A DNA stretch of 64,000 nt, taken from positions 304,463 to 368,462 of the forward strand of contig CP065002.1 of the NCBI GenBank assembly GCA_016700095.1. The letters run 5' to 3'. The stretch is from Candidatus Woesebacteria bacterium. GTDB lineage: Bacteria; Patescibacteriota; Microgenomatia; UBA8517. Both the position numbers and the translations under genes were made by a program. Below, piece after piece: positions 14,862 to 64,000 of the stretch. Every line of letters begins with the position of its first letter. The first letter of the stretch is position 1. Below the pieces are notes generated by a model. It did not search any database. It was not told where the DNA came from and was given only the letters and a program-made list of their open reading frames with translations.

Positions 14862-15167
14862 TTACAATAGACTTCGAAGTCGAAAGTCGGGAAAGAGTGT
14901 TTTTTGCAGATTTAGGTCATGACCTTTGGCTACCCTAATTGCTTCAAGAATTGTTTTTATGCCTGCGATGTTAAGTTTGCGTTCAAATGATAAATATTTA
15001 AGAAACTGCAAATCGTTAAGGTCTGCGACACTAAACATTCTTCGTTTGGTTTTGGTGCGGTGGGGAGTTAGAAGTCCCGCTTTTTCATAAGCCATGATAG
15101 TTCGTATATGCAATTCAAGCAGTTTTGCCGCTATGGAAATAGTCAGAATTGGTTGATCGTTATTCAT
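14862..15167 (-). CDS. MerR-family transcriptional regulator (101 aa)
   Basis: 'LTISIAAKLLELHIRTIMAYEKAGLLTPHRTKTKRRMFSVADLNDL' is a MerR-type HTH plus the start of a dimerisation helix. Confidence 0.6.
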   Translation of the reverse strand: MNNDQPILTISIAAKLLELHIRTIMAYEKAGLLTPHRTKTKRRMFSVADLNDLQFLKYLSFERKLNIAGIKTILEAIRVAKGHDLNLQKTLFPDFRLRSLL

Positions 15168-22100: not shown

Positions 22101-25100
22101 ATCAGGTGCAGTAGCGGCAGTCCGAATACGCCAAGGTACAGGCACTAATCGAACAGATACTTGGGTAAGATCAGCAGGTGCACAAATAGCGGGAACTACA
22201 ACTGTTGCGGTTCCATATCCCGAAAATGAAATCGGGGATATGTTAATTATGTTTGTTGGTAGCAGAAACACAGATAATACTACACCAGAAACGCCAACAG
22301 GTTGGACAAGTTTGGGAACATATACAGGTGGATCAGGTACATTCGGAGCTGATGCTGGTAATGCCAGGACGACTGCTTTTTATAAAGAGGTAGAAGAAAG
22401 AGCAAGCGGAACTCAGACTGTGGTCATACCATCGGGAACAACCTCTGTTGGACAAATGGTAAGTCTACACAAAGATGATGTTGATTCATGGACAATTGAT
22501 GCAGATGGAGGAAGTGATAATAGTGGTGGAACTGGTTGGTCGGCTCCAGGAACAGGAATTGATTTAAATGATGACGATTTGGTTATTGTTGGATCAACGA
22601 TGAATACTGATGCATATACTTATTCGGGGCACGCGATGGCGGCAACAAATGTCACATGGGGAGATGTAACGCAGTCTACAGCATTTAACTCAGGAACGGG
22701 AAACGACATGTCACTTGAAATTGTGACAGCAAGGGTTGATAGTATTGTTGGTGGATCGGTAACAAGTGCTCCGACTTTATCGTCAACAGCAAGCGGATCG
22801 ACAGCTAATGCCCCAACCGGTTCAAGCTTTTATGTAAAAATTTCAGGAAATGCTGCTTTAGACTTTTCCGGCATTATTTATACCGGCGAAGGCAGTTCTC
22901 CTTTGGATTGTTCGTCTGGCGGAAACAGGAATGTTGCTTTAAGGGTGGATGGAAGTGGGACATATAGCGCGGATTGTAGTTTGGATACAGGGGAGTGGGA
23001 AATTACGGGAGTTACGGCAGCCGCTGGTACAATTGTCACTGTCTTTTTGGATGGAGAAACTGAAAAGGCTGTGGTAATTACAGAATCATCAGGCGTAGGT
23101 TTAGACAATCTTGATCTTTACCAAAATCATGTGATTGTAAGACATGATAATTCGGGAAGTCTGACCATTGATGATATGAATCAATTTGACGGTGGAACAA
23201 CTGACTGCAGCTCGGGAACAGGTGACTCTGATGTGCAGTTTTGTGCAGTAAGTGGTACACCTGATACGTTGACGGTGGATGACGGTCAGGAACTTTACAT
23301 TTGGACAGGGAATTCTTTTGCTCCGGGAGGTACAGTTACAGTTGATGATATAAAAATTGTAGGTACATATACAGCTGCAGCAAGTGAGAGTATTACCGTT
23401 TCCGGTACCTGGACCCAGTCTGGTACCTTCACCTCAAGTACTTCCACTGTCACCTTTGATGCTCCTGGTGCTACAACTGAGGATATTGTTACAACAGGAA
23501 GTGGAGCATTTAACAATGTTGTCTTTAATGATGGGGAAGGTGGTGCCACTTGGGAGATTGAAGATCCTCTGGATGTGGATGGTAACTTTACCATAACAGG
23601 TGGGACAGTGGATGTTGTAAGTGGAGAAGATAATCAGATTAACGTAGGAGGAAACTGGACCAATGATGATACTTTTGTGGAAAGAAGTGGAAAGGTAGTC
23701 TTTGATACTTCAACTACTGCTACCCTAGATAGTAACTGTTCCGATGTGGGTACTTGTACCAATGAGAATTTCTACGACCTGGAACTATCCAAAGCAAGTT
23801 CGGGGAATACCGTTACTTTGACTAACTTTGGTATACGGGTAACTAATACCTTAACCCTCACTACGGGGACTTTGGTGCAAGGAGCATATAATGTCCGGGT
23901 TGAGGGGGCAACTGCAGTATCAGTAGCCTCAAATGGTATCTGGAGTAATACTTCAACAGGAGACGTGATCCTTGGTGGCTCCTTTGCCAATAGTGGCATA
24001 GTAACCATGCAGGGAACAACAAGCGCTTGCGGAGAAACTGATGCAATTTCAATCACCTCAACTTCAGGTGGAAGTCAAAGGAGTTGGACTAGTTTGGGAG
24101 GTACTTTCAACATGAATGATGTTTCGGTCCAGGACCAGGGAGGAAGTGCTGCAATTACAGTTTACTCTGGTACCAACGTCAGTGGTAACAATTCCAACTG
24201 GGTGTTTGAAGATTGTGTTACCAGTTCTACATCTTCTTCTGCTACAGGACATTCATTCCAAAGAAAGACATTCTACGATGATGAAAATGAAACCTTCTGG
24301 AGGTTTTACCATGATGGTGATGAAGTTGACATAGAATATTCTAAAGATAGTGGTGATACCTGGAGTTCTACTACTGCCTTGGCATATGACACCAATGACT
24401 TTTCTGTCTGGTGGAAAGCAATCACGGTTGGAGAAACCACCACTGAATATGTATGGATGGCAGTTACCACGTCAGATGATATCCTGGTCAGACGCGGGAC
24501 ATTAGGATCAACATCAGTCACCTGGGACAGTGAAGCCAATGTGGTTTCACTTAATGGCACAGGAGCATCTGACACCTACTCATACCCATATATTTCGTTG
24601 GATGATGCAAACTATATGTGGGTGGGAGCAAGACATTACAATGGAACTAACTATACGTATAAGACAGTAAGAAGTGATGCTTCTGACACCGGTAATGCCA
24701 CCTGGAGTGGAGTAGGCTTTGGTTCTACTGTTCCCGTATCCCAAGTATCAGCTGACCAAACAAATGCAAATGTCTTTGGCAACATTGTTCCACTTAATGG
24801 CCAAGACATGTATGCAGCCTTTGTCAGTAACACTCTTCTTCAGGGTTGTGTCTGGGACCACAGTGACGCTGCCTGGGAAGATAGTGATGGGGCAAGTTGT
24901 GTGGGTAGAAGTGATTGGCTTTCAGGATGGGATCAAAGACTTGAAATTACAGTTGACAATACTAACATAGACAGCAATCTTACACATTTTCCATTACTTT
25001 TAACTTTAGGATCATCCGTGGGAACGGAAAGCGATGATGTAAGTACTGTTTTTGATGAACTTGCAAGCGATGCCAATAGAAAAAAGATTGCCGTAACCAA

Positions 25101-26669: not shown

Positions 26670-28094
26670 TTGCCAAATATATTTGAAACATATACCAATT
26701 GTGATAATGTAAGTAAACGTTTTGGTGCAGGAAATTATATGGAAAAAAGTGCTATACCCGAAGAAACTGAAACAATTGCCGCCAAAAGATCAAAAAGGCT
26801 GACGCAAAAAATACTTGAAGCACGACAAAAATTAAATCAACGCAAAGCCTGGTGGAGCAATGCTTTGGTTGAAATACTAATTGTAGGAATTGTTTTTGTG
26901 CTTAATGTTTATCTTGTGATTGAATACTTTGATACCTTTGCTTACGAGACTGCCTTTTCCGGACCTGTCATACCATTGACAATAAAACTTGTCCAAGTAT
27001 TTAATGTTTCGTATTTAAAGGCTTTGCAGTTGGTTAACATATTTTTCTTCATGTTTTTCCCAATTTCCATGTACGTATTTATTAGGCATTTCACAGAAAG
27101 AAAACTGGCGGCAGTAACGGGTATATTAATTATTTCACTTCCGTATTATCCATTTGCTGAGACGAGAATAAATGCGGCACTATTGGCACAAGATTCCGCG
27201 CACATGGCGTCACTTGTAATTATTCCTTTTGCTTTGATTACAATGCATAAGTTTATCAAAGAGGGGAAAACATCAAATTTGATATTTGTTTCTCTAACCA
27301 CTGCCTTGATTGCGTTGGCTTCACCATTTGGACTTCTTACTTATTTGATAATTTCTCTTGTGGTAACGTTTTCTGAAGTTTTATTGGGAAAAGGGCGCTT
27401 GAAACTGACGAGATTAATATTTGCGCTTATAATTGGTGCTGGCTTGACATCGTTTTGGTACAATCCCGGTTTTATATATTGGATAATTACCGGTCCGATG
27501 GGTTCGGACTTGAAAGGTACTTTGTCGAGATTGATACCCATGACCTTTTTTACTTTACCAATATTGGCCACCTTTGGCTATCTATTGTTTGATCGAAAAC
27601 CGCAATTGCAATCATTGTTTGTTTCCTTTTTCCTGCTTGTTTCTTTTTTGGTACTTTCAAGCGCCGGAGGTGGAATATTTTCTCTGCACCCAAGTAGATA
27701 TGTGCCGGAATTGGGAATTTCTTTGGCTTTTTTTATTGGTATTGTTTTTGTCCGAATTGGAGATTATATATCGATGCGTGAACTTAAAATCAATAAAGCA
27801 AAACCAGGCATTAATGGTAAAACACTAATCAGATCAGCAACCGTACTTGTGCTTGTTATGCTTATCGTTGGTGTGATTTTGGGAAAAGAGAATGTTTCTC
27901 AGCCCAGAAAAGTACTAGGATACTGGTCCCAAGTAGAAAAGAGTGAAATTTGGATGGCAAGGGATGAAGTGAGAGGATCGTTTGTTATACTTGGTTATAT
28001 AATTACGTTTTCAAGCGTATCGGCACTAGGATTTGTTTCGCTTGAGGCTAGAAAGGAACAGAAAAGCAAAATAGTTAAGAGTTATAAAGTTTGA
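26670..28094 (+). CDS. Polytopic integral membrane protein (474 aa), function unknown
   Basis: About 10 hydrophobic helices. Lies immediately after giant paralog 3. No mini-sortase motif. Confidence 0.5.
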   Translation: MPNIFETYTNCDNVSKRFGAGNYMEKSAIPEETETIAAKRSKRLTQKILEARQKLNQRKAWWSNALVEILIVGIVFVLNVYLVIEYFDTFAYETAFSGPVIPLTIKLVQVFNVSYLKALQLVNIFFFMFFPISMYVFIRHFTERKLAAVTGILIISLPYYPFAETRINAALLAQDSAHMASLVIIPFALITMHKFIKEGKTSNLIFVSLTTALIALASPFGLLTYLIISLVVTFSEVLLGKGRLKLTRLIFALIIGAGLTSFWYNPGFIYWIITGPMGSDLKGTLSRLIPMTFFTLPILATFGYLLFDRKPQLQSLFVSFFLLVSFLVLSSAGGGIFSLHPSRYVPELGISLAFFIGIVFVRIGDYISMRELKINKAKPGINGKTLIRSATVLVLVMLIVGVILGKENVSQPRKVLGYWSQVEKSEIWMARDEVRGSFVILGYIITFSSVSALGFVSLEARKEQKSKIVKSYKV

Positions 28095-42272: not shown

Positions 42273-43097
42273 ATGAAAAGTTCACTTATAGAAAGACAAA
42301 ACCCCAAAGAATACATGCGAAGATACCTGAAGGTTGCTCCATTGGCACTTGCGATATTTAGGTCAATTGAGGCCAAAAATATATCAAGTGTAAAAATAGA
42401 AAAGCCAATTCTCGATGTCGGATGTGGCTTTGGTGAGTTTGCGGGAGTATTTTTTGACAGAAAAGTCGAAATGGGTCTGGATATTTCATGGAAGGAGCTC
42501 GTGACAGCTCAAAAATCACATAAGTATAAGAAGCTAACTTGGGTAGATGCAAGAGAAATGCCTTTTGCCGATAATCACTTTGGGACGGTTTTGTCGGTTT
42601 CTGTTTTGGAGCATATCAAAAACGTCGAACCGGTAATAAAAGAAATTTATAGAGTACTTAAAAAGGGAAACTTGTTTGTGTTTACGACCAACACCAATAA
42701 AATTAATAACTACTTATTTTGGCCTGAAAAATTTACAACTTGGGGTTATCCAAAACTGGCAAAGAAATATATTAAAATTTATCACAAGGTTTTTAAGCAC
42801 GAAACCTTGTGGACGAAGGATAAATGGCAGAAAGTATTGGAAAGAAACGGATTTGAAATTGTTGAAATAAGAGAAATAATATCTCCCGAGGCGACAAAGA
42901 TGTTTGATTTTTTTATCATGACTTCATGGCCATTTCAAATAATTAAAATAATTACCGGTAAACGTATGTCATGGCGCCCCAAGTGGTTTAGGGAAATGCT
43001 TGTTAAGCGTTTTGCTTACCTTGTGGAACAGGAGGAAACGGAGGGGAGTAATCTCTTTGTTGTGGCAAGAAAGAAGGGATTGGGCACTAGACAATAG
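42273..43097 (+). CDS. Class I SAM-dependent methyltransferase (274 aa)
   Basis: 'ILDVGCGFGEFAGVF' (motif I). 'VLSVSVLEHIKN'. 2 bp after the upstream stop. Confidence 0.7.
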   Translation: MKSSLIERQNPKEYMRRYLKVAPLALAIFRSIEAKNISSVKIEKPILDVGCGFGEFAGVFFDRKVEMGLDISWKELVTAQKSHKYKKLTWVDAREMPFADNHFGTVLSVSVLEHIKNVEPVIKEIYRVLKKGNLFVFTTNTNKINNYLFWPEKFTTWGYPKLAKKYIKIYHKVFKHETLWTKDKWQKVLERNGFEIVEIREIISPEATKMFDFFIMTSWPFQIIKIITGKRMSWRPKWFREMLVKRFAYLVEQEETEGSNLFVVARKKGLGTRQ

Positions 43098-43504
43098 GGA
43101 TTAGGAACCAGAATTGTGAATTATGTATCATGTATTACGAATAATGAATTGAGGGTTTCGTCGATAAATAAACTCGTTAATTTTCCTTTTACTAATTAAA
43201 ACCCATTAGAAAATACATTTCCCATTATGCGAGACGCTTTTGAAATATCAATACAAATACCTTCAAGTGTAAAAGCTATTCTTTTACATAATATGAGTAT
43301 TGGTATTAAAAATTTAGAGAGCATCCACGGGAATCCTACTTTTTTCTTGGACGAGCAAGAAATGAAGAATAATAATAAATAAAATTTAAACTTAAAGCTC
43401 CATCTGCCATCTGATGCCTTACATATTTCATTTGTTGGTAAGTAAGAGGTGATTTGTTATAATACAAATCCAGTTTAGATTAAAGTGCAATTTTAAGAAT
43501 AAAA

Positions 43505-43513
43505 AGGAGGTGA
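43505..43513 (+). promoter_or_regulatory. Shine-Dalgarno sequence AGGAGGTGA
   Basis: 7 nt upstream of the ATG at 43520. Confidence 0.6.
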
Positions 43514-43519
43514 TTATTT

Positions 43520-43765
43520 ATGAGTAAAGAAGACAAAAGACAGACATCGAAATTGGCTGCTACCGTGGGTTATTTGATAATACAAAATACTGGTGTACAA
43601 GTGATAGATCCAGGTCCTTATGCGGATAATAATCCTCCAATAATCGGACCAAGTAATACAAGAAGATGGAGTTCTGATGGAACAGAATTACCAAAATTAG
43701 TCGACCCATGGGATGCCTATAGTGAGGAAACAAAAAGGCTTGAAGAGGAAAGGAAAGCAGGATAA
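43520..43765 (+). CDS. Small hypothetical protein (81 aa)
   Basis: Strong RBS. Hydrophilic. Ends in the K/E-rich 'EETKRLEEERKAG'. Confidence 0.5.
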   Translation: MSKEDKRQTSKLAATVGYLIIQNTGVQVIDPGPYADNNPPIIGPSNTRRWSSDGTELPKLVDPWDAYSEETKRLEEERKAG

Positions 43766-43808
43766 AAACAATAAGAAATATAACATTAAGCAAATATTTA
43801 ATGATTAT

Positions 43809-43885
43809 GTCCTATCTTCCATATTGACCGCGTGGGCTTGTAGTGAGACAGTTATTATATGAGTGAGAAGAGTATTTTAGTGCTC
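43809..43885 (+). repeat. Duplicated ~75-bp leader and 5' end segment (copy 1) of the response-regulator gene
   Basis: 'gtcctatcttccatattgaccgcgtgggcttgtagtgagacagtta..atgagtgagaag.gtatttt' recurs at 44580..44656. There it forms the start of the REC gene. Confidence 0.8.
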
Positions 43886-44579
43886 AAAAGATACTTAAGT
43901 ACTCGTTCATGGTTTTACTTGGCACTAGATGTTTAATACTAAACATCTAGTGTTGGAGATCAGAGATTATCGGAAACTAGAGCACATAAATTGAATCCCA
44001 ATTTCCAAAATTAGATGATGTGGTTATCTATGTTTTGTTTGTTGTCAAAAAGCGACTTCGAGATTATAATCTAAAATCTCTAGGTTGAGGGTGCTAACAA
44101 TCAGATGTTTTTATTTTTTTGTTTAGTATAAAAAGCTATGAGTGAAATTACTAAGTTTGTTATTGGTACACGTTTTGTTCAGGATAGATTTGCAGAAATC
44201 CGAAGGGCGCGCGAGACTGAAGATACTTGGATTAGGGCAGTAGATGGTGAATATGGGATCCACAAAAACAGGATAAATGCAGGAAAAATGATGCAAGAAG
44301 AGTTGCGCAGCGTTGAAAAATGGACTCGCAGTTAAACGATGCTTTTTCATTATTAAAACTCTAACGCCTTTTTTCAAACACATCTTAAATACTCCGATAT
44401 AGAATTATATTTCTTTCCCAAGTTTTAGTTTTGTCATTCCTGACAGGATTAATAAATCTGGTGGAGTCAGTCTGAAGTAACAGCTTTGCAGACTGGAAAG
44501 ATGTAACCCGGCTAGTGAGGCAAGCACGGAAATGATAATTGTGCAATTATGGTTATTGAAACTCGTGTTCTTTAATTTA

Positions 44580-44656
44580 GTCCTATCTTACATATTGACC
44601 GCGTGGGCTTGTAGTGAGACAGTTAGTGTATGAGTGAGAAGTGTATTTTGGTGGCG
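44580..44656 (+). repeat. Duplicated leader and 5' end segment (copy 2, functional start of the REC gene)
   Basis: Near-identical to 43809..43885, with about 5 mismatches. Confidence 0.8.
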
Positions 44657-45004
44657 GAAGATGAAGACGCGCTGGCATATGCTTTAAAACTCAAACTCAA
44701 CCAGGCGGGTTTTAAGGTAAGGCTGGTTACCACAGGGGATGATGTATTGAAAGCTCTTGAAGAGCGGGAATATGATTTGTTACTTCTTGATATTCTGATG
44801 CCCGGCAAAAACGGTTTCGAGGTTATGGAAATCATGCGGGAAAAAGCTTACAAGACACCTGTTGTTATTTCGACGAATTTAAGTGATGACCGCGATATGG
44901 CACTTGCAAAGAAACTGGGCGCGAAAGCTTACTTGATCAAAACCGATTATAGTTTGGATGAAATCGTTGAAAAAATTGAAAAATGCCTAATAAAATGCGA
45001 TTAG
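44630..45004 (+). CDS. Stand-alone response-regulator receiver (REC/CheY-like) domain protein, 124 aa
   Basis: 'ILVAEDEDALAYAL...YDLLLLDILMPGKNGFEVMEIMREK...KAYLIK' shows the acidic pocket, the phospho-Asp in 'LLLLDI', and the T/K positions. Confidence 0.8.
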   Translation: MSEKCILVAEDEDALAYALKLKLNQAGFKVRLVTTGDDVLKALEEREYDLLLLDILMPGKNGFEVMEIMREKAYKTPVVISTNLSDDRDMALAKKLGAKAYLIKTDYSLDEIVEKIEKCLIKCD

Positions 45005-45017
45005 AAGGACTTGTAAA

Positions 45018-46139
45018 ATGAAGGTCAAGAAGTTAAAAAAATTACTCGTATCCATATCGGAATTTAGCGCCAAAAGATTAAATCTTGCCTTGGCGATTAC
45101 CTCCGGAATATTTTTAGTTGTCGCCTCGGGTCTTTATGTGTGGTCGCATTATAGTGCCGATAAAGCTTTAACGAACCAAATGCTTCACCGCCAACAAGTA
45201 ATTGCGCGGTCGGGAGCGGAGTCGATTGAGCATTTGTTTAGAGCAACGATCGACTCGATTACACTTTTGTCCGAAAGAGAAGAGCTACTTACTCCAACGG
45301 AAAGACAAAGTGCTTTGGACAGATATCTTGCGAACTGGAAGCATTTTTCTATCGTCGGGGTGTTTTTGACCGATGAGGACGGAACGATCGTCGTTAATTC
45401 AAGCAACGTCGGATCAAAGCTGGTCGGACAATCCATATCGGAAAGAGATTATTTCAAGCAAGCAATTAGAGAACCAAAAGGTGAGGTGTTTGTGAGTAAA
45501 CCATTTATTTCAGAAATAGGAAATGTTGCCGGAGATACTATTTTGACGTTTAGCATCCAGGTATATGATGAAAATGGTGACTTCACAGGCATTCTTACAT
45601 CGGTGTTTTTACTTAACGACGTTGTTAACGCATATCTTGATCCACTTCGAATATCGGATGCAACTCGGATTTCTTTGCTTGCCCCCAATGGCGATTTTTG
45701 GTACTCGCAAAATATCGATTTGATCGACAAGAATATCTATGCTGTCTTGGATAATTTTAACTTTCCAGGGAAAAGCGTATTTATATCAAAATTGACGAGC
45801 GGTTTGAACCAACTCACCGAAGGTAAATTAGACATCGTACGTCCTCTGGAGGAAAGTGAAGGCGTAGTGATTGAAAGGTCGCTAATTGCATACAGCCCGA
45901 TTAACTATCAACACGACAATTACCTTTATCTAATCGTGTCTAATCCGGCAGATGAGGCTTTTCAGTTTGATTCGACGTATAAAGCGATGAATTTCTGGAT
46001 GGTTATTGTAGTTGTTGCAGTCGTCCTTGCCTTTTCATTTTTTGTCGTCCTTGTAGTTCGCGTTGCGCAACGCGATTCCTACATAGAAGGGTATATTTAC
46101 GGACGAGACCAAATGGTTCATAAACCCAAAGAAAAATAA
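45018..46139 (+). CDS. Membrane-anchored Cache-like extracytoplasmic sensor protein without output domain (373 aa)
   Basis: N-terminal TM 'LALAITSGIFLVVASGLYVW', ~290 aa extracytoplasmic region, C-terminal TM 'FWMVIVVVAVVLAFSFFVVLVV'. No kinase or GGDEF domain. Confidence 0.5.
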   Translation: MKVKKLKKLLVSISEFSAKRLNLALAITSGIFLVVASGLYVWSHYSADKALTNQMLHRQQVIARSGAESIEHLFRATIDSITLLSEREELLTPTERQSALDRYLANWKHFSIVGVFLTDEDGTIVVNSSNVGSKLVGQSISERDYFKQAIREPKGEVFVSKPFISEIGNVAGDTILTFSIQVYDENGDFTGILTSVFLLNDVVNAYLDPLRISDATRISLLAPNGDFWYSQNIDLIDKNIYAVLDNFNFPGKSVFISKLTSGLNQLTEGKLDIVRPLEESEGVVIERSLIAYSPINYQHDNYLYLIVSNPADEAFQFDSTYKAMNFWMVIVVVAVVLAFSFFVVLVVRVAQRDSYIEGYIYGRDQMVHKPKEK

Positions 46140-52500: not shown

Positions 52501-55286
52501 AGACTACCTGTTACCGACAAATGTGCGCTGTCCGCAGCTTCAAAATACTGACTTGTTCCATTAAGTTCACCCGAATTACCAAATTTAGCCGCAGTAAAAG
52601 CTGTAGAGTTGTTATTAGTTAGAGTTGTCGAATTGCCACTTTTATCACTAGGATTTCCCGTCGTCTCATCCATCGGCCAGTAACCGACAAGTCCCTGGAT
52701 TAGAAAGTCTTTGCTTTGTTGACCAAGTATTGCAATAGAACCACTTGCAGCCGTATTTTTGATTGCATCAGATTTAACTTGCTCCGATGTCCTCTCGTAG
52801 TTGTAGGCTTTGAAAGTATCAATAAAACCATGGTAATTGGCAGTGGTAGTACCACCAAGCAACAAATCACTACCGCCTTCGACAGCCGGAGTGGGGTTGA
52901 TGGCAACCAGTGCTGAGTGTTGAGCGCTCAGTGTCCCCGTTGATCCAAAAGCACCTGGATTTTCACTTGATGCTTCGTATTCCCTCTGCGCAGACGACAA
53001 ACGGACATGATTGGTGCTTGTGTTACTTGCCGCCGATTCGGCAGTTATAATACTTAAATAATCAGTTGGTGCTGTCAAAGTATTATCTGTTCGTCTTGTA
53101 TTTGCCATTGCGAGCCACAATATTTTTGACGAACCCCAACCGGGATCGAGACTGGCAGGATCCAGGGTATTGGTTGATGCAAAGACACCGTCGATGGGAT
53201 CAGAAGTATCGTGACCTGTAATCCGGTAGCTATTATGGGCTGAAGCTCTACCCGCTGCGGTTGTTATGTCGACGGTAGCTCCTTCCGAGCCGGCTGCTGT
53301 TTTCCAAAAGATTGTCGTTCTACCTGTTGAGTCACGGGTAGACAATGTGTTCCAGCCGCTTAGTGTGTGAGTGGTTGAGGTTGCCCCCGTCCGAAAGAAA
53401 ATAACAAGTAAATCGCCAGAAGAGATGCCAGAAGGAAGTGATACGGTATGCGTTGTGGCTGAAGTTGATGTTGTTGCACTTATGTTGGTTGCTTGAACTA
53501 TTGGATATGTTTCGGGAGATGCACCTTCTTCGGTTGGTGATCCCGATCCATTAATGCTTGTACCTCGAAGAATACCGTCGATGTAAATAGATATTTCATC
53601 ATCGCCGTCATCGGTGTAACTCATAGAAATATGGTGCCAAGTATTTAATGCAATTGCGTCATCGATTGTCAAAGTCGCGCTATTACCGCTTAGGGAAAGT
53701 GATGCTTGGATATCGGTGACTCCCGAACTTGAGCCCGCAGCAAGTCTTAAATATGTTGCACTACCTTTGTAAAATAATTGACCGTTACTACTTTCTCCTA
53801 GTGAATTTGGTTTGTACCAACCTTGAACTGTGAACCCGTTTGTCAATTGATTGCCGAGATTTAGTGATTCGGAAGTGGTGATGGTTGCAACGTCATCCGT
53901 TCCATCAAACCAGATGCATTTGCCACTTACACACATGTCTTCATTTTGCCAAGTCGGCGCGGCGGTTGTGCTACCAAAAGCCGCGCTGTTTCTATTGACC
54001 GTTGAATCACAAGCGTCGCTTGTGCCGTCAAAACATGTGTTTGATACACCTTCGTCGAATTTCAAAAAGGCTACGGGTGTAGCTCCTTTCTCTTGAGTTC
54101 CCGCAGAAAGATATGTGGCTGGTGCGTTTTGATTACGATATTCGGTTGTGATCCAATCGGTTGAGCGATTGGTGTTGGAAAACCGAAGTTCATCTAAACG
54201 ACCGGCAAAGTATGTATCTTCGTATGGATTATCACTTCTTCCAAGTAAAAAGCTCCCCGCTGAATTAGTAACATTTTGTCCGTTGTCGTCTGTCAGGTCT
54301 AATGCTCCATTATCGTAAATACTTATTGCGGTACCGTTTTTTACGATTGTAAAATAAACCCAAGCATTGCCGTCGAAGGTAAAATAATTACTCGGATGAT
54401 CGGAGTCGTTCATAGAATAATTAATACGTCCATCGTCTAATACATCAATCCACCAACCGTCAGATGCATCCGATGTATTGGAATGTTGCATTACTCCGAT
54501 ATTTGTGTCTGTGGAATAAATCCATCCCGATAGTGTCATATTTCCTGTTCCAATATCAAAACTAGGGGAGTCGGCAATAGTAAAATAATCATTACTGCCA
54601 TCCATATCCATTGCATTACCCACTTTCCCCGCGATTAAATCGGCAGTTGTCATGGTGCCGTTGGCATCGGCGTCGTTACTGTTTTCAGTTGAATCGCATA
54701 GTTCTTTAGTGCCACCTCCGCAGTCGCCGTCGGTTGTAATAGAAGGATCTTCTGACATATGCCAAACACCTTGGTAACTATTCGACCATACACCTTTAGG
54801 ATTTTCTTGATTGGAGGCTCCGGGATTTCCGTAATAGATATATATTTCGGTATCGGCAGCATAAGCAAGAGTTGGAATTTTTACCCAGCTAACCAAAGTT
54901 CCACTCGAAAAGTATTCTATTTCATGATCTAATTTAGTGCCATCTGACGATGTAAAAAATATATCATCACCATCTGTTTGGGCTGCCGTTATATCTGCAT
55001 CGGTTGTCAAACTGATAAGAACGGGAAAATTTGTTAAATCCGATGAACCACTCACCATCGCGTTATCAATCGTTATCGTTTTCCGATAAGCCCAATTTTC
55101 ATCAAACCAAGCAGCCTGAGTATCTTTGGGTTTAATAAATTCCCAGATACGTATGGAAAACAAAATTAAAACTATACTAAGAAAAACAGCAAGTGCTTTG
55201 CGTCGATTCTTTCGAGTGTTAGACATCAGACGACCTATTGTTGTAACTACTTTTTTGATTAACGTATTGTTTCTCATACTACTCAT
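49509..55286 (-). CDS. Giant type-II-anchored surface protein with six LamG (concanavalin-A-like) domains, 1925 aa
   Basis: N-terminal signal anchor 'ALAVFLSIVLILFSIRIW'. Six copies of the LamG C-terminal signature: 'FAGRLDELRFSNTNRS', 'FDGHIDDVRIYNRTLS', 'LEGTIDDIRIYNYART', 'FDGLLDDVQIFSSVLT', 'FDGLIDEVKFYNYIRT', 'FDGQIDDVRIYNYVLS'. Confidence 0.8.
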   Translation of the reverse strand: MSSMRNNTLIKKVVTTIGRLMSNTRKNRRKALAVFLSIVLILFSIRIWEFIKPKDTQAAWFDENWAYRKTITIDNAMVSGSSDLTNFPVLISLTTDADITAAQTDGDDIFFTSSDGTKLDHEIEYFSSGTLVSWVKIPTLAYAADTEIYIYYGNPGASNQENPKGVWSNSYQGVWHMSEDPSITTDGDCGGGTKELCDSTENSNDADANGTMTTADLIAGKVGNAMDMDGSNDYFTIADSPSFDIGTGNMTLSGWIYSTDTNIGVMQHSNTSDASDGWWIDVLDDGRINYSMNDSDHPSNYFTFDGNAWVYFTIVKNGTAISIYDNGALDLTDDNGQNVTNSAGSFLLGRSDNPYEDTYFAGRLDELRFSNTNRSTDWITTEYRNQNAPATYLSAGTQEKGATPVAFLKFDEGVSNTCFDGTSDACDSTVNRNSAAFGSTTAAPTWQNEDMCVSGKCIWFDGTDDVATITTSESLNLGNQLTNGFTVQGWYKPNSLGESSNGQLFYKGSATYLRLAAGSSSGVTDIQASLSLSGNSATLTIDDAIALNTWHHISMSYTDDGDDEISIYIDGILRGTSINGSGSPTEEGASPETYPIVQATNISATTSTSATTHTVSLPSGISSGDLLVIFFRTGATSTTHTLSGWNTLSTRDSTGRTTIFWKTAAGSEGATVDITTAAGRASAHNSYRITGHDTSDPIDGVFASTNTLDPASLDPGWGSSKILWLAMANTRRTDNTLTAPTDYLSIITAESAASNTSTNHVRLSSAQREYEASSENPGAFGSTGTLSAQHSALVAINPTPAVEGGSDLLLGGTTTANYHGFIDTFKAYNYERTSEQVKSDAIKNTAASGSIAILGQQSKDFLIQGLVGYWPMDETTGNPSDKSGNSTTLTNNNSTAFTAAKFGNSGELNGTSQYFEAADSAHLSVTGSLTLSAWINPDDTTGSQNIVGKWDGTNTSYLLALEGNEVRMYIDSASNYQATTALDITANIFTHVVGTYNAESQTLKIYANGVEIPSTQSGTIPSSINDNAGETVIGADDSAANYFDGHIDDVRIYNRTLSPADIQNLYNWAPGPVAYYPLDENTGTTSVGDKSANGFTGTLTSITENSWVPGNYGSGLYLDGSADFIDIGTGPTKVNTVAFWVKPVTTTEYFVNLTSTTDLISASGGTISATGLSGPTIYINGVQGTTLTAGVWQHVAVTTATAENASNFEIGRTADTNYLEGTIDDIRIYNYARTASQIVEDLNGGHPIGGSPIGSQIARYRFDEMSGDYSYDAVGSYNGNLAGSGVACPQAGVSDCPTWNTEGKINSSMEFDGSNDWIDSTIPSNVTSNVSISLWFYSHDAGSMGNSANLTQYMVTQRRSANNPRLTVGLDNNRLGMLWHDGANNAVEGTTVLSPNTWYHAFLTYNGTTINLYLNGRLEATAAESSMTSATADTFVIGDANDISSGPFDGLLDDVQIFSSVLTQDQMNLIVNANAAVNFGTGYDEQDQLEDGADATPVVYYTFDENTGTTTTYNKGSNQYHGTLTNFTEGSWVPGKYGSALDFERDSSQYISLTTDPTNVAAFTAQAWINIDAINGSDEMTIVGYVNGVGDEWTFSVATDGTLEFEDFVSSKSSTTVLAPGRWYHVAATYNYTTLNIYIDGRLDSTHAITNTFGSNGGDFEVGFRSRFGLSQYFDGLIDEVKFYNYIRTPAQIAYDYNRGKPVGWWRLDECQGSTANDASGNGNNGTITEGGSGTNSGGVGTCSSGNGDEMWDNGTTGKYHASLDFDDTDDLVSITDDEVLDLPNNISISAWVKTGGNEADNVVVSKGTQYELGINADGDVYWYNGSTTEDDASAKVLTGSWHHIAVTNNDTTTKYYVDGILTGTDTAGIGANNATNFLIGYDGTNYFDGQIDDVRIYNYVLSEDQIRQIMNFGSAYFGPAEGAP

Positions 55287-58200
55287 TTAAAGCGTCAACT
55301 ATCCACCAGTTGAATTCGATATCTTGGGTGAGAACTCCATCAATTCCAACTACAAATGTGTTGGTGCATTCATTTTCTCCACTTTCGTCTAGGTTGGAAA
55401 TCTCCTTTTGCAAAAGATCGGAACCTTCACATATGAGTTTTCCTTTGACATACAGAACTTTGTTGAGAGTAGAGGATGTCGGGGTGATATAGATTAAACT
55501 ATTTTGTGTTAGTTGTTTTGTTTTTATTTCGACAGAGTTTGTTCCTGCTAACACTATTGCAGATCCGATTGATGCACTTGACTCAGCTGATGCAACTTCA
55601 GGTACAGAAACTGTATCATTGTTTTCAACTGGTTGAGCGATGTCAGCATTTGATATAGTTAGTTTGTCTGTGGTAACTTCCTGTGCAGTTACTTGTCCTT
55701 CGACTTCTAAATTGCCTGCAATTGTGACGTTGCCTTCGGTATCAATATTAACCTTTCCTGCCATCAGATAAAGCGGTTGTGTTCCGGTTGCTTGAATCGA
55801 AAGGGGAGCATCAAGTGTGCTTATCGCGTTAACAGCATTTCCGGTTGATTCACTTATTGTTGCACTTATTACGATATCGTTTCCCAGCACCAACGATTTA
55901 TTAATGGATAGACTTTCAACTGTCGCAAGCCCTGTTACATAAATATTTTCGACACCGAGATTGGAAATGGATACATCACCATCGGTATTTTCCATTTCCC
56001 AACCAAGTGAAGACTTCATCGTATTTTGGTCTTCCACGATATCCAAAAGTAGATTTTCGATTGATTCGATCGAAACCGAAGTATCGCTTGGGTCAACAAC
56101 ATCGTTGTCGATAGTTATACTTTCTTGATTGCTTGGTGAATTATTAGCAAGGTCGCTAGAGAGATTGACCGAATTATCGATAAATACAAGTATTGTTTCT
56201 GATGGATTAGCAGGATCCCACTTTTCAAGGGCACTTCCGATGGAATAACCAGTTTGATTTGCTTTCATTGCCATTCCAGGAACATCGGATGAGGCAAGTC
56301 TGTCTCCTTCGTGTATTTCATCCGAAGCAGGATCAATCTTGACGGGTACTCTGCCTGCCAGCGCAACCGGTAAAGCATAGTCAGCCCACTCAAGTACATC
56401 TTCGCCCATAATTTGATGTGCTTGCGAGGAAACGATACCGATAACTTTATCACCATATTTTTGATTGGATTTAGTTACCCCGAAGGTATTTTCATTTATG
56501 GGATTACCTATTTGCACAATATCTCCTGCCTGCGGGATATCTTCATTTCCGATTACAGGGTACCATTCTGCAAGATCGGCGGGATTAGGATTACATTCGA
56601 CTAATTGATAAACGGGATCGCCGTTAACACTTGTCGACTGGAAACATAGGTTGCCTGAAGTTTCGGGAGTGTTGTCGGTTTGTTCGGCGATACTGCCAAC
56701 ATACGTATTGCCTTCATTATCCACCACAAATTTATTTTCACCGGAGGACAGAGCGGCAATTAGATTATCGGCATGTGTGTCAACAATTAGTTCACCATCA
56801 ACATTGACGTTGCCATTTAATGATATATTCTGACTGGTTAAATCTAAGTTTGTATTATTTCCGGAAAGGAGAGTGTTGCCCGACCCGTCTTTAATTGTAA
56901 TGTCACCTGATCCATCGAGCGCAATTAGGGTTTGCGGATCGTAATAGCCGGGATTAATAAATACTAATATTTGGCCGATTGAATCCGGATCGGCATTTTC
57001 ATATCTGGCAAGAGCGGTCCCCAAAATCATTCCCGCTTGATTGGCTTTCGCGGCTACACCGGCGATAGAGCTTGTTGTAACCATATCTCCCGGTTCAATT
57101 GTTCCGTTTTGGCTGGACACATTTACCAGAATACGTCCGGAAAGTGCTACCGCCACTTCTTTGACACTCCGTGGATCATTTGCTTGCTTCCATCCGCCAA
57201 GAAGTACTCCTGGTTTAGTTGAAATTGCTCCGATTAATTTACTTCTATCTGTATTGGTAGCTTTCTTGACAAATTCTTCTTCAAATCTATCTGAATCCAT
57301 ACCTTGGGGTACAGGGTTAAAATCAAGAGATACGACGTCTCCTGCAACTATATTTATATCTGAGGTTGGGAAATTTTCTGCAATATCGTCAACAGTAAAA
57401 CTAGACGAAATTCCATATACAGTTCCTGCACTTCTTGCCGCATCTATACAGTCGTCAGCCGTATTAAGAGTATCATCTGCGCAAATTGCTCCGTATGCCA
57501 GAAGTCCCGACCCGCCAATATTTGTAGCATCGGTAGCTCCAAGTACCACGTCAGCCGTGTCGGTTATTATTCCGACACTTGCTCCGTCATTGTTAAATAC
57601 GAAATCTCCTGTGCCATATGTTTTCAGAGTTAAATTATTATTTTCAAAACTCTCTCCGGATTCTATTGTTAGTGGACCATAACTTTCTATCTTGCTTGTT
57701 GTTTGGTTGGTTAACACGATATCGTAAGCTATGGATACATCACCCGAAGCTGTAAAGGCATGTGGCAAGGCGGATGTGATCAAGGATTGGCTAACTGTAA
57801 ATACATCACTTCCGTTATCTGACAGGGCCATTATATTTCCGATATTTCCATACTGTCCGACATTTAAGCTGAAAAGATCACCGGTTGCATATATTTCTGT
57901 AGAACCTGAAGGTGCCCATTCCAAGTCAATCAAGCTACCCGTTGTAAGTGTTGTTGATGTGGATTGTAAATAGATAGCATCACCTGAAGTCAGAGCGTCT
58001 GCAGATAAATCGATACCCTTTCCTTCCGTAATCGTGTCGGCATTTAAGCCTAATAGTTTTCCGGTTGTAATTCCACTACTTGCAGTTGTCAAATCAAATA
58101 AGGTGTCTGCCGCATCGGTTGAACCGTCAAAAGTCAGATAGGTATTTGTACCGTCACCGAGCGTGAATGCAGTTGTTGAGGTAGAGTCAAGATCGAGATA

Positions 58201-61200
58201 GTTATCAAGGTTTATTCCGCCACCCGTAAAGTTAAATTCGTCTGTGTCAAGATAACTTATGCTTCCCGAATTGGTTGCATCCGAGGCATAGAAGGTGAGT
58301 GTCGGATCATTTGTATCATTTGCTCCATCACCAATTCTTACAGTATTTGTACTTACATCTACCGAGAACGGAGCAACTAATGAGTCTGCACCGGTTATAC
58401 CGATAGACAAATCTGTAGCTGCTGAACTTGGACTTAAAGTATTGGTTGTCAAAACCCATTCGGTACTGCCACCTGTGGCTACATCACCCCAATTAGTCCC
58501 ATCAAAAACTTGCAATTTGTTATCGTCAGTATCCCAGGCCAGATATCCCTCACCGCCACCTGTTATGGCTGTTAGGGCTGTCGTTTGTGGAAGCTTTAGT
58601 CCTTGTGCGGTTGCGTCATTATGTATTATTGCCGACAAGTCAAGCAATGCTCCGTCTGCAAATGTAGCTGTGCTTGCAAAAGTTGCAACACCATCAATAT
58701 CGAGCGTTCCGTCGACTTCTAAAATATCTTCAATATATAAATCATCATCACTTGATGCAGTTGTGGCAGTTCCACTATCACTTATCGCGTTATAAGCAGT
58801 TCCTGTGATTCCGCCTATATTAAATACGTTTGTGTTAGCAAACACGATTTGTCCACCGGCTGCCGTAAGGTTAACATCTGCTGCTGATGTTATGTTCACA
58901 TCACCTGTTGTAGTTGTTGAGAGAGTGAGATTTCCGCTTGCCGCAGTAACGTTACTTGCACCTGTTCCATCAATCGAGAAGGTTCCTGTTGATAGCATAT
59001 CGAATGTACCTGTGACATCAATATCTAGATTTGCGGCGGCGTTTATATCAATTAGTCCTGCAGAGGTGAGATCGAGTTCGCCTGAGGTAATTGTTGAAAT
59101 TTGTAATTGTCCACCAGTTACACTCACGTTGCTTGCTAATGCTCCATCTATCGAGAAGGCTCCACCTGCATCTAAGGTTAGTGCATCATTTGCATCTATA
59201 TCTATATCTCCGCCTGTACCTGTTGCATTTATGTCAATCGCGGCAGTACCTGTGCCATTACTATTTAGGCTTAGAGTTGCACTAGTTCCGCCACTAACAG
59301 TAAGTGCCAAAGCGTCAGCTGCAACTTCACTTGATATAATGTTAACTCCACCTGTACCTGTTACATCAATATCTTCAGTGCTTGCCGTTGTTATGTCTAT
59401 TCCGCCGGTATCAGATGATATGACTATTGAATCGGCTACGTTTTCACCGCTTGAAAGAATTAAAGATCCAGCTGCGGAATCAAGAGTTAGGTCGCCAGCC
59501 GTTGTGCTCCAAACACTAGTTGCGTTTCCGGTAAGAGTTATTGCTTGTGAAGTACCGGCAATTACGGAAAGTGCTCCACCTGCAGGTCCCGTTATGGAAG
59601 CAGCTCCATCAGCATCCACAAAAGTAAGGTCTCCTGTTGTACCTATGTTTAAGTAATCAGTTTGGCCAAGTCTTGTAGTTCCATCATTAAGGAAAGTTGC
59701 AAAGGCAGTTCCATTATCTTCAATTGTGAAATCACCTGTCGTGGTTAGATCAAAGGCGAGTCCACTTGCATCATCAATCTCCATATTTACATCCACTGCA
59801 GTGAGGGAGAAAGCATATACATTGTCAAATGTAGGTTGTGCACCAGCTACTGTTGTCCATCCGCAGTTGGTTTCAGAAACATCGCAGACCAAATCATCTC
59901 CCCAGTACAGATCTCCCGATGCACTTCCTGCTGAAGCTGCATTGAAGCCAAAGACATTGTCAGTATCTGCATCATCATTAAGGCCTAAGGTGGTGCCATC
60001 AACAGACAAATTGCCTGTGATATTAACATCACCTACATTGGCATTATCTGTAATGGTCATTAGATCATTACCCGAGGTATCTTCAAAGGTTAGAGTACCT
60101 GTTGTACTTTCAAACATCCTTACTCCATCAAAGAGTAAAAAGTTTGCATCAAGGTCAAGTGCTGTAACAATATCAGTATCACTTAAATCAATACCTGTTG
60201 TTATCCCTCCTGCTTCACTTACAAAGGAGAGACCAGTTGCTACTGCCGTATCCGTATCTGAATTATCAAGGACAAGTAGAGCTTCGGTTGCCCCACTACT
60301 TGCTGCATTATCAATTACCAATCCGTTTTGAGTACCACTTGAGCTGGCATTGGTTAAAGTAAGGGTAGTGGAGTTGGCATTTGCTGTTCCACTAAGAGCC
60401 TGGTTTACTGCGAGTAAACTATCCGAATCAAGAGTAATTGTCAGGTCGTCGGTTCCAGCCGGTGTAAACCCTACATTACCTGTAAAGGTAAAATCATAGT
60501 CCTGGTTAACAGCAACATCATCTGCATTAACGGTAATGCCATTACCTGCTCCAACGGTAAAGGTGGTATCACCATCTGCACCGACAAGGACATTATCTGC
60601 TCCACCTGTAAGGCCACTTCCTGCAACTGCGTCACCTAGTAGCCTTACTGTAAAGTCAAGGTTTTCATCACCATCATCACCGTTAGTTAGATTGGTTAGT
60701 ATATTGCCATCACTACTGGTGAACCTTAAGATGTTGGCATCCACAACAGAGTAGGTATCAGTATCATCATCGGCTATCGTCCAGGAAGAGAAAGCACTTA
60801 CACTGGTTGTCCATCCGCAGTTGGTTTCAGAAACATCGCAGACCAAATCATCTCCCCAGTACAGATCTCCCGATGCACTTCCTGCTGAAGCTGCATTGAA
60901 GCTAAAGACATTGTCAGTATCTGCATCATCATTAAGGCCTAAGGTGGTGCCATCAACAGACAAATTGCCTGTGATATTAACATCACCCACATTGGCATTA
61001 TCTGTAATGGTCATTAGATCATTACCCGAGGTATCTTCAAAGGTTAGAGTACCTGTTGTACTTTCAAACATCCTTACTCCATCAAAGAGTAAAAAGTTTG
61101 CATCAAGGTCAAGTGCTGTAACAATATCAGTATCACTTAAATCAATACCTGTTGTTATCCCTCCTGCTTCACTTACAAAGGAGAGACCAGTTGCTACTGC

Positions 61201-61347
61201 CGTATCCGTATCTGAATTATCAAGGACAAGTAGAGCTTCGGTTGCCCCACTACTTGCTGCATTATCAATTACCAATCCGTTTTGAGTACCACTTGAGCTG
61301 GCATTGGTTAAAGTAAAGGGTAGTGGAGTTGGCATTTGCTGTTCCAC
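55279..61347 (-). CDS. C-terminal part of a giant repeat adhesin-like surface protein (2022 aa in this frame). The N-terminal region consists of 318-aa tandem repeats. The C-terminal ~1400 aa is non-repetitive and T/S/G/D/N-rich.
   Basis: Overlaps the downstream LamG gene by 8 nt. Repeat unit 'TLTLTNASSSGTQNGLVIDNAASSG...DLYWGDDLVCDVSETNCGWTT...'. The apparent start at 61347 is an artefact of the frameshift at ~61317. Confidence 0.75.
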   Translation of the reverse strand: MEQQMPTPLPFTLTNASSSGTQNGLVIDNAASSGATEALLVLDNSDTDTAVATGLSFVSEAGGITTGIDLSDTDIVTALDLDANFLLFDGVRMFESTTGTLTFEDTSGNDLMTITDNANVGDVNITGNLSVDGTTLGLNDDADTDNVFSFNAASAGSASGDLYWGDDLVCDVSETNCGWTTSVSAFSSWTIADDDTDTYSVVDANILRFTSSDGNILTNLTNGDDGDENLDFTVRLLGDAVAGSGLTGGADNVLVGADGDTTFTVGAGNGITVNADDVAVNQDYDFTFTGNVGFTPAGTDDLTITLDSDSLLAVNQALSGTANANSTTLTLTNASSSGTQNGLVIDNAASSGATEALLVLDNSDTDTAVATGLSFVSEAGGITTGIDLSDTDIVTALDLDANFLLFDGVRMFESTTGTLTFEDTSGNDLMTITDNANVGDVNITGNLSVDGTTLGLNDDADTDNVFGFNAASAGSASGDLYWGDDLVCDVSETNCGWTTVAGAQPTFDNVYAFSLTAVDVNMEIDDASGLAFDLTTTGDFTIEDNGTAFATFLNDGTTRLGQTDYLNIGTTGDLTFVDADGAASITGPAGGALSVIAGTSQAITLTGNATSVWSTTAGDLTLDSAAGSLILSSGENVADSIVISSDTGGIDITTASTEDIDVTGTGGVNIISSEVAADALALTVSGGTSATLSLNSNGTGTAAIDINATGTGGDIDIDANDALTLDAGGAFSIDGALASNVSVTGGQLQISTITSGELDLTSAGLIDINAAANLDIDVTGTFDMLSTGTFSIDGTGASNVTAASGNLTLSTTTTGDVNITSAADVNLTAAGGQIVFANTNVFNIGGITGTAYNAISDSGTATTASSDDDLYIEDILEVDGTLDIDGVATFASTATFADGALLDLSAIIHNDATAQGLKLPQTTALTAITGGGEGYLAWDTDDNKLQVFDGTNWGDVATGGSTEWVLTTNTLSPSSAATDLSIGITGADSLVAPFSVDVSTNTVRIGDGANDTNDPTLTFYASDATNSGSISYLDTDEFNFTGGGINLDNYLDLDSTSTTAFTLGDGTNTYLTFDGSTDAADTLFDLTTASSGITTGKLLGLNADTITEGKGIDLSADALTSGDAIYLQSTSTTLTTGSLIDLEWAPSGSTEIYATGDLFSLNVGQYGNIGNIMALSDNGSDVFTVSQSLITSALPHAFTASGDVSIAYDIVLTNQTTSKIESYGPLTIESGESFENNNLTLKTYGTGDFVFNNDGASVGIITDTADVVLGATDATNIGGSGLLAYGAICADDTLNTADDCIDAARSAGTVYGISSSFTVDDIAENFPTSDINIVAGDVVSLDFNPVPQGMDSDRFEEEFVKKATNTDRSKLIGAISTKPGVLLGGWKQANDPRSVKEVAVALSGRILVNVSSQNGTIEPGDMVTTSSIAGVAAKANQAGMILGTALARYENADPDSIGQILVFINPGYYDPQTLIALDGSGDITIKDGSGNTLLSGNNTNLDLTSQNISLNGNVNVDGELIVDTHADNLIAALSSGENKFVVDNEGNTYVGSIAEQTDNTPETSGNLCFQSTSVNGDPVYQLVECNPNPADLAEWYPVIGNEDIPQAGDIVQIGNPINENTFGVTKSNQKYGDKVIGIVSSQAHQIMGEDVLEWADYALPVALAGRVPVKIDPASDEIHEGDRLASSDVPGMAMKANQTGYSIGSALEKWDPANPSETILVFIDNSVNLSSDLANNSPSNQESITIDNDVVDPSDTSVSIESIENLLLDIVEDQNTMKSSLGWEMENTDGDVSISNLGVENIYVTGLATVESLSINKSLVLGNDIVISATISESTGNAVNAISTLDAPLSIQATGTQPLYLMAGKVNIDTEGNVTIAGNLEVEGQVTAQEVTTDKLTISNADIAQPVENNDTVSVPEVASAESSASIGSAIVLAGTNSVEIKTKQLTQNSLIYITPTSSTLNKVLYVKGKLICEGSDLLQKEISNLDESGENECTNTFVVGIDGVLTQDIEFNWWIVDALNE

Positions 61348-64000
61348 TAAGAGCCTGGTTTACTGCGAGTAAACTATCCGAATCAAGAGTAATTGTCAGG
61401 TCGTCGGTTCCAGCCGGTGTAAACCCTACATTACCTGTAAAGGTAAAATCATAGTCCTGGTTAACAGCAACATCATCTGCATTAACGGTAATGCCATTAC
61501 CTGCTCCAACGGTAAAGGTGGTATCACCATCTGCACCGACAAGGACATTATCTGCTCCACCTGTAAGGCCACTTCCTGCAACTGCGTCACCTAGTAGCCT
61601 TACTGTAAAGTCAAGGTTTTCATCACCATCATCACCGTTAGTTAGATTGGTTAGTATATTGCCATCACTACTGGTGAACCTTAAGATGTTGGCATCCACA
61701 ACAGAGTAGGTATCAGTATCATCATCGGCTATCGTCCAGGAAGAGAAAGCACTTACACTGGTTGTCCATCCGCAGTTGGTTTCAGAAACATCGCAGACCA
61801 AATCATCTCCCCAGTACAGATCTCCCGATGCACTTCCTGCTGAAGCTGCATTGAAGCTAAAGACATTGTCAGTATCTGCATCATCATTAAGGCCTAAGGT
61901 GGTGCCATCAACAGACAAATTGCCTGTGATATTAACATCACCCACATTGGCATTATCTGTAATGGTCATTAGATCATTACCCGAGGTATCTTCAAAGGTT
62001 AGAGTACCTGTTGTACTTTCAAACATCCTTACTCCATCAAAGAGTAAAAAGTTTGCATCAAGGTCAAGTGCTGTAACAATATCAGTATCACTTAAATCAA
62101 TACCTGTTGTTATCCCTCCTGCTTCACTTACAAAGGAGAGACCAGTTGCTACTGCCGTATCCGTATCTGAATTATCAAGGACAAGTAGAGCTTCGGTTGC
62201 CCCACTACTTGCTGCATTATCAATTACCAATCCGTTTTGAGTACCACTTGAGCTGGCATTGGTTAAAGTAAGGGTAGTGGAGTTGGCATTTGCTGTTCCA
62301 CTAAGAGCCTGGTTTACTGCGAGTAAACTATCCGAATCAAGAGTAATTGTCAGGTCGTCGGTTCCAGCCGGTGTAAACCCTACATTACCTGTAAAGGTAA
62401 AATCATAGTCCTGGTTAACAGCAACATCATCTGCATTAACGGTAATGCCATTACCTGCTCCAACGGTAAAGGTGGTATCACCATCTGCACCGACAAGGAC
62501 ATTATCTGCTCCACCTGTAAGGCCACTTCCTGCAACTGCGTCACCTAGTAGCCTTACTGTAAAGTCAAGGTTTTCATCACCATCATCACCGTTAGTTAGA
62601 TTGGTTAGTATATTGCCATCACTACTGGTGAACCTTAAGATGTTGGCATCCACAACAGAGTAGGTATCAGTATCATCATCGGCTATCGTCCAGGAAGAGA
62701 AAGCACTTACACTGGTTGTCCATCCGCAGTTGGTTTCAGAAACATCGCAGACCAAATCATCTCCCCAGTACAGATCTCCCGATGCACTTCCTGCTGAAGC
62801 TGCATTGAAGCCAAAGACATTGTCAGTATCTGCATCATCATTAAGGCCTAAGGTGGTGCCATCAACAGACAAATTGCCTGTGATATTAACATCACCCACA
62901 TTGGCATTATCTGTAATGGTCATTAGATCATTACCCGAGGTATCTTCAAAGGTTAGAGTACCTGTTGTACTTTCAAACATCCTTACTCCATCAAAGAGTA
63001 AAAAGTTTGCATCAAGGTCAAGTGCTGTAACAATATCAGTATCACTTAAATCAATACCTGTTGTTATCCCTCCTGCTTCACTTACAAAGGAGAGACCAGT
63101 TGCTACTGCCGTATCCGTATCTGAATTATCAAGGACAAGTAGAGCTTCGGTTGCCCCACTACTTGCTGCATTATCAATTACCAATCCGTTTTGAGTACCA
63201 CTTGAGCTGGCATTGGTTAAAGTAAGGGTAGTGGAGTTGGCATTTGCTGTTCCACTAAGAGCCTGGTTTACTGCGAGTAAACTATCCGAATCAAGAGTAA
63301 TTGTCAGGTCATCGGTTCCAGCCGGTGTAAACCCTACATTACCTGTAAAGGTAAAATCATAGTCCTGGTTAACAGCAACATCATCTGCATTAACGGTAAT
63401 GCCATTACCTGCTCCAACGGTAAAGGTGGTATCACCATCTGCACCGACAAGGACATTATCTGCTCCACCTGTAAGGCCACTTCCTGCAACTGCGTCACCT
63501 AGTAGCCTTACTGTAAAGTCAAGGTTTTCATCACCATCATCACCGTTAGTTAGATTGGTTAGTATATTGCCATCACTACTGGTGAACCTTAAGATGTTGG
63601 CATCCACAACAGAGTAGGTATCAGTATCATCATCGGCTATCGTCCAGGAAGAGAAAGCACTTACACTGGTTGTCCATCCGCAGTTGGTTTCAGAAACATC
63701 GCAGACCAAATCATCTCCCCAGTACAGATCTCCCGATGCACTTCCTGCTGAAGCTGCATTGAAGCCAAAGACATTGTCAGTATCTGCATCATCATTAAGG
63801 CCTAAGGTGGTGCCATCAACAGACAAATTGCCTGTGATATTAACATCACCTACATTGGCATTATCTGTAATGGTCATTAGATCATTACCCGAGGTATCTT
63901 CAAAGGTTAGAGTACCTGTTGTACTTTCAAACATCCTTACTCCATCAAAGAGTAAAAAGTTTGCATCAAGGTCAAGTGCTGTAACAATATCAGTATCACT
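59850..64000. repeat. Tandem array of 954-bp (318-codon) repeats, at least 4.3 copies, nearly identical. It runs off the window.
   Basis: Identical antisense ORFs start at 60536, 61491, 62445 and 63399 (spacing 955/954/954). Another set starts at 59867, 60821, 61776 and 62730. Confidence 0.9.
61265..64000 (-). pseudogene. Upstream part of the same giant repeat adhesin gene, disconnected by a +1 frameshift. It continues beyond the window end.
   Basis: Same 318-aa repeats, with 889 aa visible. Its C-terminal 'TLYFNQCQLKWYSKRIGN' diverges from the repeat consensus 'TLTLTNASSSGTQ' exactly where one repeat copy has 'gtaaaggg' instead of 'gtaaggg'. Confidence 0.6.

Follow-up and report, generated by a model that had tools for sequence, protein, structure and literature searches.

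The extra adenine that splits a giant repeat-containing gene in the Candidatus Woesebacteria genome CP065002 is probably (at roughly 0.7) a residual consensus or polishing error of a Nanopore-based metagenome-assembled genome (MAG), the gene being intact in the organism. This reading is built on the indel itself, the identity of its flanks, the source of the genome and the way in which it was assembled, and the presence of a single break in frame over the whole window, i.e. the stretch of 64,000 nucleotides analysed here. From these we infer that sequencing reads derived from the affected repeat unit carry AA.

A single extra base in a tandem array

The sequence GGTTAAAGTAAAGGGTAGTGG is unique in the window, where it is found on the plus strand at 61306-61326. 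The version that is one A shorter, GGTTAAAGTAAGGGTAGTGG, occurs at three sites, namely: 60352, 62261 and 63215 (exact searches in each case). The claim of the earlier note that one copy reads AAA and every other copy AA therefore holds, 'every other copy' being the three copies within the window. The single 955-bp period that it described is likewise borne out by the unit anchors (59852, 60806, 61761, 62715 and 63669), whose start-to-start spacings are 954, 955, 954 and 954. The features of the gene and of its surroundings are collected in Table 1.

Comparison of the 4.35 units shows that their variation amounts to three substitution sites and the single indel. At two of the three substitution sites, the variant recurs in two units each. 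Such recurrent substitutions look real, and the assembler would thus have resolved true differences between units. The flanks of the AAA site are identical to those of the 62261 copy over at least 954 bp to the left and 540 bp to the right. Further copies of the unit probably lie beyond position 64000. The array, which makes up about 7% of the coding sequence of the window, was not detected by Tandem Repeats Finder, a program with a maximum period of 500.

The earlier note also described two overlapping minus-strand ORFs in different frames. Both are present; the upstream one does not start at 63934 and is instead open to the end of the window, and the 5′ end of the gene therefore lies outside it. 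This missing part would be expected, from the homologs, to encode a helix-turn-helix (HTH) domain and a transmembrane (TM) helix. If AAA is read as is, the upstream frame stops 17 codons past the extra base and the truncated product ends in ...NSTTLYFNQCQLKWYSKRIGN. A query with this frame returned no corresponding protein from the collection, and P0001 (1.5 identical units) was likewise not returned. With one A removed, the two frames fuse into a gene in which 4.35 repeat units precede a unique C-terminal region (~1,520 aa). This region ends in ...IEFNWWIVDALNE, and the C-terminus is the same as that of intact homologs. The peptide across the junction is NSTTLTLTNASS in the full-length protein and NSTTLYFNQCQLK in the truncated one.

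The downstream frame is 100% identical to the database protein QQS39312.1 (IPM62_01735) of a Candidatus Woesebacteria bacterium. The ATG from which this protein is annotated is present in the shifted frame only. Its residues 1-7 (MPTPLPF) are an out-of-frame translation of the repeat and do not belong to the true protein under any explanation of the extra base.

Table 1. Coordinates of the features discussed, given for the window unless another contig is named.
Feature	Position	Strand	Remarks
AAA run	61315..61317	-	TTT on coding strand, mRNA ...ACC CUU UAC U...; frameshifting indel; other copies AA
In-frame AA allele, neighbouring copy	60352..60371	-	homologous site
In-frame AA allele, next copy	62261..62280	-	homologous site; flanks match those of the AAA site
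In-frame AA allele, fourth copy	63215..63234	-	homologous site
Tandem array of 954-bp (318-aa) units	59835 (approx.)..64000	-	99.7-100% identical; array cut at window end
Upstream reading frame	61265..64000	-	open from window end; stop at 61267-61265
Downstream reading frame, 2,022 codons	55279..61347	-	QQS39312.1 / IPM62_01735, 2,018 aa, annotated from ATG 61335
Fused gene, one A removed	55279..64000	-	2,906 codons in window, no internal stop
Confident C-terminal domain	56161..56580	-	model residues 441-580, pLDDT 84-97
LamG-rich gene, 1,925 aa	49509..55286	-	own Met, N-terminal membrane anchor, seven LamG/ConA-like domains
+1 sites of ERZ25039554 contig_16900	9983-10008 and 13569-13594		identical sites, both reading ACTCTTGTCC

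The gene family and its surroundings

Intact homologs of 2,300-3,300 aa have an N-terminal MerR-type HTH, one TM helix, Thr/Gly/Asp-rich repeats and a conserved C-terminus of ~600 aa, which ends in ...F(N/D)WWIV... exactly as the window gene does. Since these homologs share one architecture, the normal form of the family is a single polypeptide. The downstream fragment alone is devoid of an anchor or signal.

The family (window 55279-64000; homologs P0042, P0007 and P0008) joins a MerR/HTH_17-type fold to a giant ectodomain of 2,000-3,000 aa or more, and it is because of this N-terminal fold that several database entries are titled 'MerR family transcriptional regulator'. The topology is similar to that of a ToxR-like membrane-bound regulator, but with an enormous ectodomain. 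'Adhesin' as a label for the giant gene is a reasonable guess.

Searches of the repeat unit and the C-terminal region gave no match among PDB sequences, NCBIfam or PHROGs and only weak ones in Pfam. The AlphaFold2 model of a single repeat unit is uninformative (mean pLDDT 52), while that of the last 873 aa has a pLDDT of 51 overall and contains two confident domains. For the C-terminal domain listed in Table 1, which belongs to a model that is poor as a whole (pLDDT 51), Foldseek returned 3suc (E 5.6e-4) and 3gqh_A (E 9.4e-4, TM(target) 0.51), and phage capsid decoration proteins score equal to or above phi29 gp12. The fold match to phi29 gp12 fits a sub-threshold match to Peptidase_G2 (PF11962), for which the window protein does not reach the gathering score (23.3 vs. 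25 bits, with 39 residues covered); two homologs carry a precomputed PF11962 match. Thus the likeness to phi29 gp12 consists of the autochaperone fold match and the weak PF11962 match, both located C-terminally in a protein that is long and rich in beta structure. The two proteins differ in that their identity is about 16% and that the window protein is cellular and membrane-anchored, its cleavage and trimerisation being putative. The phage-like autochaperone module at the C-terminus hints at a trimeric fibre.

Periscope proteins are surface proteins with highly identical tandem repeats, the number of which varies between strains by recombination; their stalk is a monomeric rod in which each repeat domain folds independently, and multimeric stalks are excluded from the class (PMC9704523). 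The window gene has highly identical tandem DNA repeats, with three variable sites in all among its 4.35 units of 954 bp. It resembles periscope proteins in having at least 4.35 such tandem units of 99.7-100% DNA identity and in encoding a very long, probably surface-anchored protein. It differs from them in its anchor, which by homology is an N-terminal HTH with one TM helix and not a C-terminal cell-wall motif, and in that the protein may be a trimeric fibre, as the C-terminal module hints.

The neighbouring downstream gene is rich in LamG domains and overlaps the stop of the giant gene by 8 nt, an arrangement that suggests co-expression of the two. We rejected it as a third fragment of the giant gene in view of its separate start and membrane anchor. 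Against NCBIfam, it scores weakly with the TafC fimbrial protein family (108 bits vs. a cut-off of 410).

Elsewhere in the window, three giant paralogs on the plus strand (582-8333, 10008-14063 and 16114-26643, encoding 2,583, 1,351 and 3,509 aa, respectively) each carry a transposase-type HTH at the N-terminus (HTH_28/HTH_23), together with a GT2 glycosyltransferase domain and a long tail. Their common DNA segments are 72-97% identical, and after each paralog comes an ORF that is small or encodes a membrane protein (8330-8914, 14085-14657 and 26670-28094). Broken genes were sought in the ORF-poor stretches at 14.7-16.1 kb and 43.1-45.0 kb, and complete small genes were found there instead, namely a MerR regulator and a response regulator. 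In addition, a low-GC stretch of ~1.5 kb (43097-44630) has no ORF >90 aa, tRNA or Rfam match and is located upstream of a gene pair encoding a response regulator (44630-45004) and a dCache protein (45018-46139). No tRNA gene or Rfam match was found in the 64-kb window.

Origin of the extra base

CP065002 is the circular MAG Kalu_18-Q3-R12-55_MAXAC.182_cln (1,274,238 bp) from an activated sludge metagenome, placed in Patescibacteria; Microgenomatia; GWA2-44-7; UBA8517 (Candidatus Woesebacteria in SILVA), with a low polymorphism rate and depths of 21.9x for Nanopore and 21.0x for Illumina (PMC8012365, Singleton et al. 2021, supplementary file 5). It was assembled with CANU and polished with Racon (Nanopore reads), with two rounds of medaka 0.6.5 and with one round of Racon using Illumina reads (2x150-bp, insert 300-400 bp) aligned with minimap2 (PMC8012365). 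The genome is thus an error-prone long-read assembly polished with short reads at one alignment per read. The identity between the flanks of the AAA site and those of the 62261 copy extends beyond the short-read fragment, i.e. beyond the 300-400 bp insert, and therefore no 150-bp read or 400-bp fragment is assignable to the affected unit. Exact DNA scans of genome, metagenome and viral collections, with either allele permitted, matched no second assembly of the organism.

We propose that, in one of the units of a perfect tandem repeat, the ~22x Nanopore consensus would have had the length of one homopolymer wrong or, alternatively, that the final Racon round would have introduced the extra A. 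During short-read polishing, every Illumina read would be assigned one best position, and reads with the true AA would align gap-free to the neighbouring identical units. The erroneous unit would be left uncovered, or outvoted at that base, so that AAA would survive polishing.

This corresponds closely to errors described for repeats, in which reads prefer the error-free instance and leave the error uncovered, and where most post-polishing errors are found (PMC8812927, Wick and Holt). Racon with short reads left >100 errors per genome in that work and added errors to 100 of the 100 error-free test genomes. Both there and here, a homopolymer indel occurs in one repeat instance, the others being error-free, the result is a frameshift in coding sequence, and the setting is a Nanopore-based assembly polished with one alignment per read. 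The match is circumstantial. The present case differs in being a metagenome at ~21x and not an isolate, and a tandem intragenic array and not dispersed IS or rRNA copies.

The rest of the window points in the same direction. The extra A is the sole frame break in 64 kb, of which about 55 kb is coding. Long ORFs of 3,509, 2,583, 1,925, 1,351, 1,069 and 997 aa are intact, and none of them is broken by any of the 30 homopolymers of 7-9 nt, all of which lie outside the giant gene. Homopolymers of this length are the hardest context for Nanopore. Since the long ORFs stay open across all 30, polishing worked wherever reads could be placed. Furthermore, the 2,022 codons downstream of the break are open throughout, and both the same repeat and the conserved C-terminus of the family are encoded in them; therefore nothing has decayed.

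Some points speak against an artefact. The change from two to three A concerns a short homopolymer, whereas Nanopore errors are found mainly in longer runs. Genuine mutations, too, have much room to arise in a gene so large and repetitive, and the assembler appears to have resolved real between-unit differences. Since three of the four identical contexts are free of the extra A, a systematic basecalling bias is unlikely and the error would be either stochastic or introduced in polishing. A context-specific basecalling error (e.g. one linked to methylation) was rejected as the sole cause, given the three identical contexts that are unaffected.

An independent contig of a relative has a similarly split gene. 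In contig_16900 of ENA ERZ25039554, two +1 insertions within near-identical repeats divide the homolog into three ORFs (1,456, 1,199 and 6,632 aa), and the periods there are 1156 and 1216 as against 1155 and 1215. The six copies at this site read ACTTTGTCC (three copies), ACTCTTTCC (one copy) and ACTCTTGTCC (two copies). The 10-nt ACTCTTGTCC is a hybrid of two in-frame 9-nt alleles, ACT-TTGTCC and ACTCTT-TCC, which is the signature that would be expected of a consensus mixing reads from different repeat copies.

In another contig (ENA ERZ25072999 ctg309260_2x_l, 1-18253), the homolog is spread over about 18 ORFs (56-1,670 aa) that follow one another on the same strand. Low-coverage long-read errors have probably broken up a single giant gene here, the contig being labelled 2x.

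Three alternatives had been offered in the earlier note: a homopolymer error, an inactivating mutation and a slipped-strand on/off switch. The error is the best supported of them, in view of the polished Nanopore assembly and of a repeat that exceeds the insert. As for a mutation, the extra base is present in the deposited consensus, and a real, very recent +1 frameshift at high frequency in the population is possible, if unlikely. The low polymorphism rate of the MAG makes a mixed population not obvious, and a context-driven sequencing error should strike all four identical contexts, of which one was struck. Loss-of-function selection often acts on giant surface proteins, for instance in escape from phage or host. 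Against a real mutation, there is no second lesion in the 6 kb downstream, and the single break falls exactly inside the 7% of the coding sequence that is out of reach of polishing, where a random real mutation would land about 1 time in 14. In addition, the assembly method is known both to leave and to create such errors (PMC8812927), and the relative in contig_16900 repeats this pattern and bears the clear signature of an artefact. The other form of inactivation, an old fixed pseudogene, was rejected in view of the 2,022 intact codons downstream. Were the frameshift real, an N-terminal stump would be made, and 1.4 repeats together with the 1,520-aa C-terminal region would either not be expressed or, for want of a membrane anchor, not be exported; by analogy with phi29 gp12, the lost region may be needed for folding. 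Reversion could then take place if recombination with the identical units next to it removed or converted the mutant unit, a process distinct from homopolymer slippage. That the base is real and reversible in this way, with unequal recombination or gene conversion between units deleting or overwriting the frameshifted unit, is in our estimate quite improbable.

The slipped-strand switch, by which the A tract would often gain or lose a base as the DNA is replicated and turn the surface protein off or on, is not supported and is very improbable. The change is indeed one of homopolymer length within a frame that probably encodes a surface protein, with a truncated product, as in the contingency loci of Campylobacter, Neisseria and Haemophilus (PMC6321876). 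However, the tract of 2-3 nt is far below the cut-offs of >=7 G/C or >=10 A/T that were drawn from experimental data for homopolymer phase variation (PMC6321876), and it is thus no hypermutable tract of the kind that characterizes SSR-mediated contingency genes. No homopolymer of >=7 nt is present anywhere in 55279-64000, and the identical A2 sites of the other copies are unshifted. The site also lies >2.7 kb into the visible gene and not near its 5′ end, and homologs have no tract there.

A programmed +1 ribosomal frameshift that gives the full-length protein is scarcely credible. The mRNA (ACC CUU UAC U) would allow tRNA-Leu to slip by +1 from CUU to UUU and restore the frame. CUU-U is the slippery sequence of prfB. 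The other elements of the prfB type are all absent: the A-site UAC is an ordinary Tyr codon with 239 uses in the genes of the window, neither a stop nor rare; no Shine-Dalgarno-like stimulator lies upstream (GCCAACUCCACUACC); and the site is unconserved even within the gene, whose three other copies are without the extra base and are read in frame. Transcriptional slippage was likewise rejected on stimulators, tract length and conservation.

Implications for giant repeat genes

If the base were real, a Woesebacteria population would carry a null allele of a major surface fibre, which would be of moderate interest for attachment to a partner. If it were also reversible, a giant surface fibre would be switched by repeat dynamics and not by homopolymer slippage in an ultra-small, probably episymbiotic Patescibacteria cell, and contig_16900 would be a second instance.

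Most likely, the extra A is no real biological feature. CP065002 would then hold a spurious 2,018-aa 'hypothetical protein', QQS39312.1, which in fact corresponds to the C-terminal two-thirds of a far larger gene. Giant repeat genes in Nanopore-based genomes of uncultivated bacteria appear prone to such splits: contig_16900 has the same signature and ctg309260_2x_l a gene broken up in a similar way, a Nanopore origin being presumed for both. Splits of this kind bear on the counts of pseudogenes, on gene sizes and on 'phase-variable' loci in these lineages.
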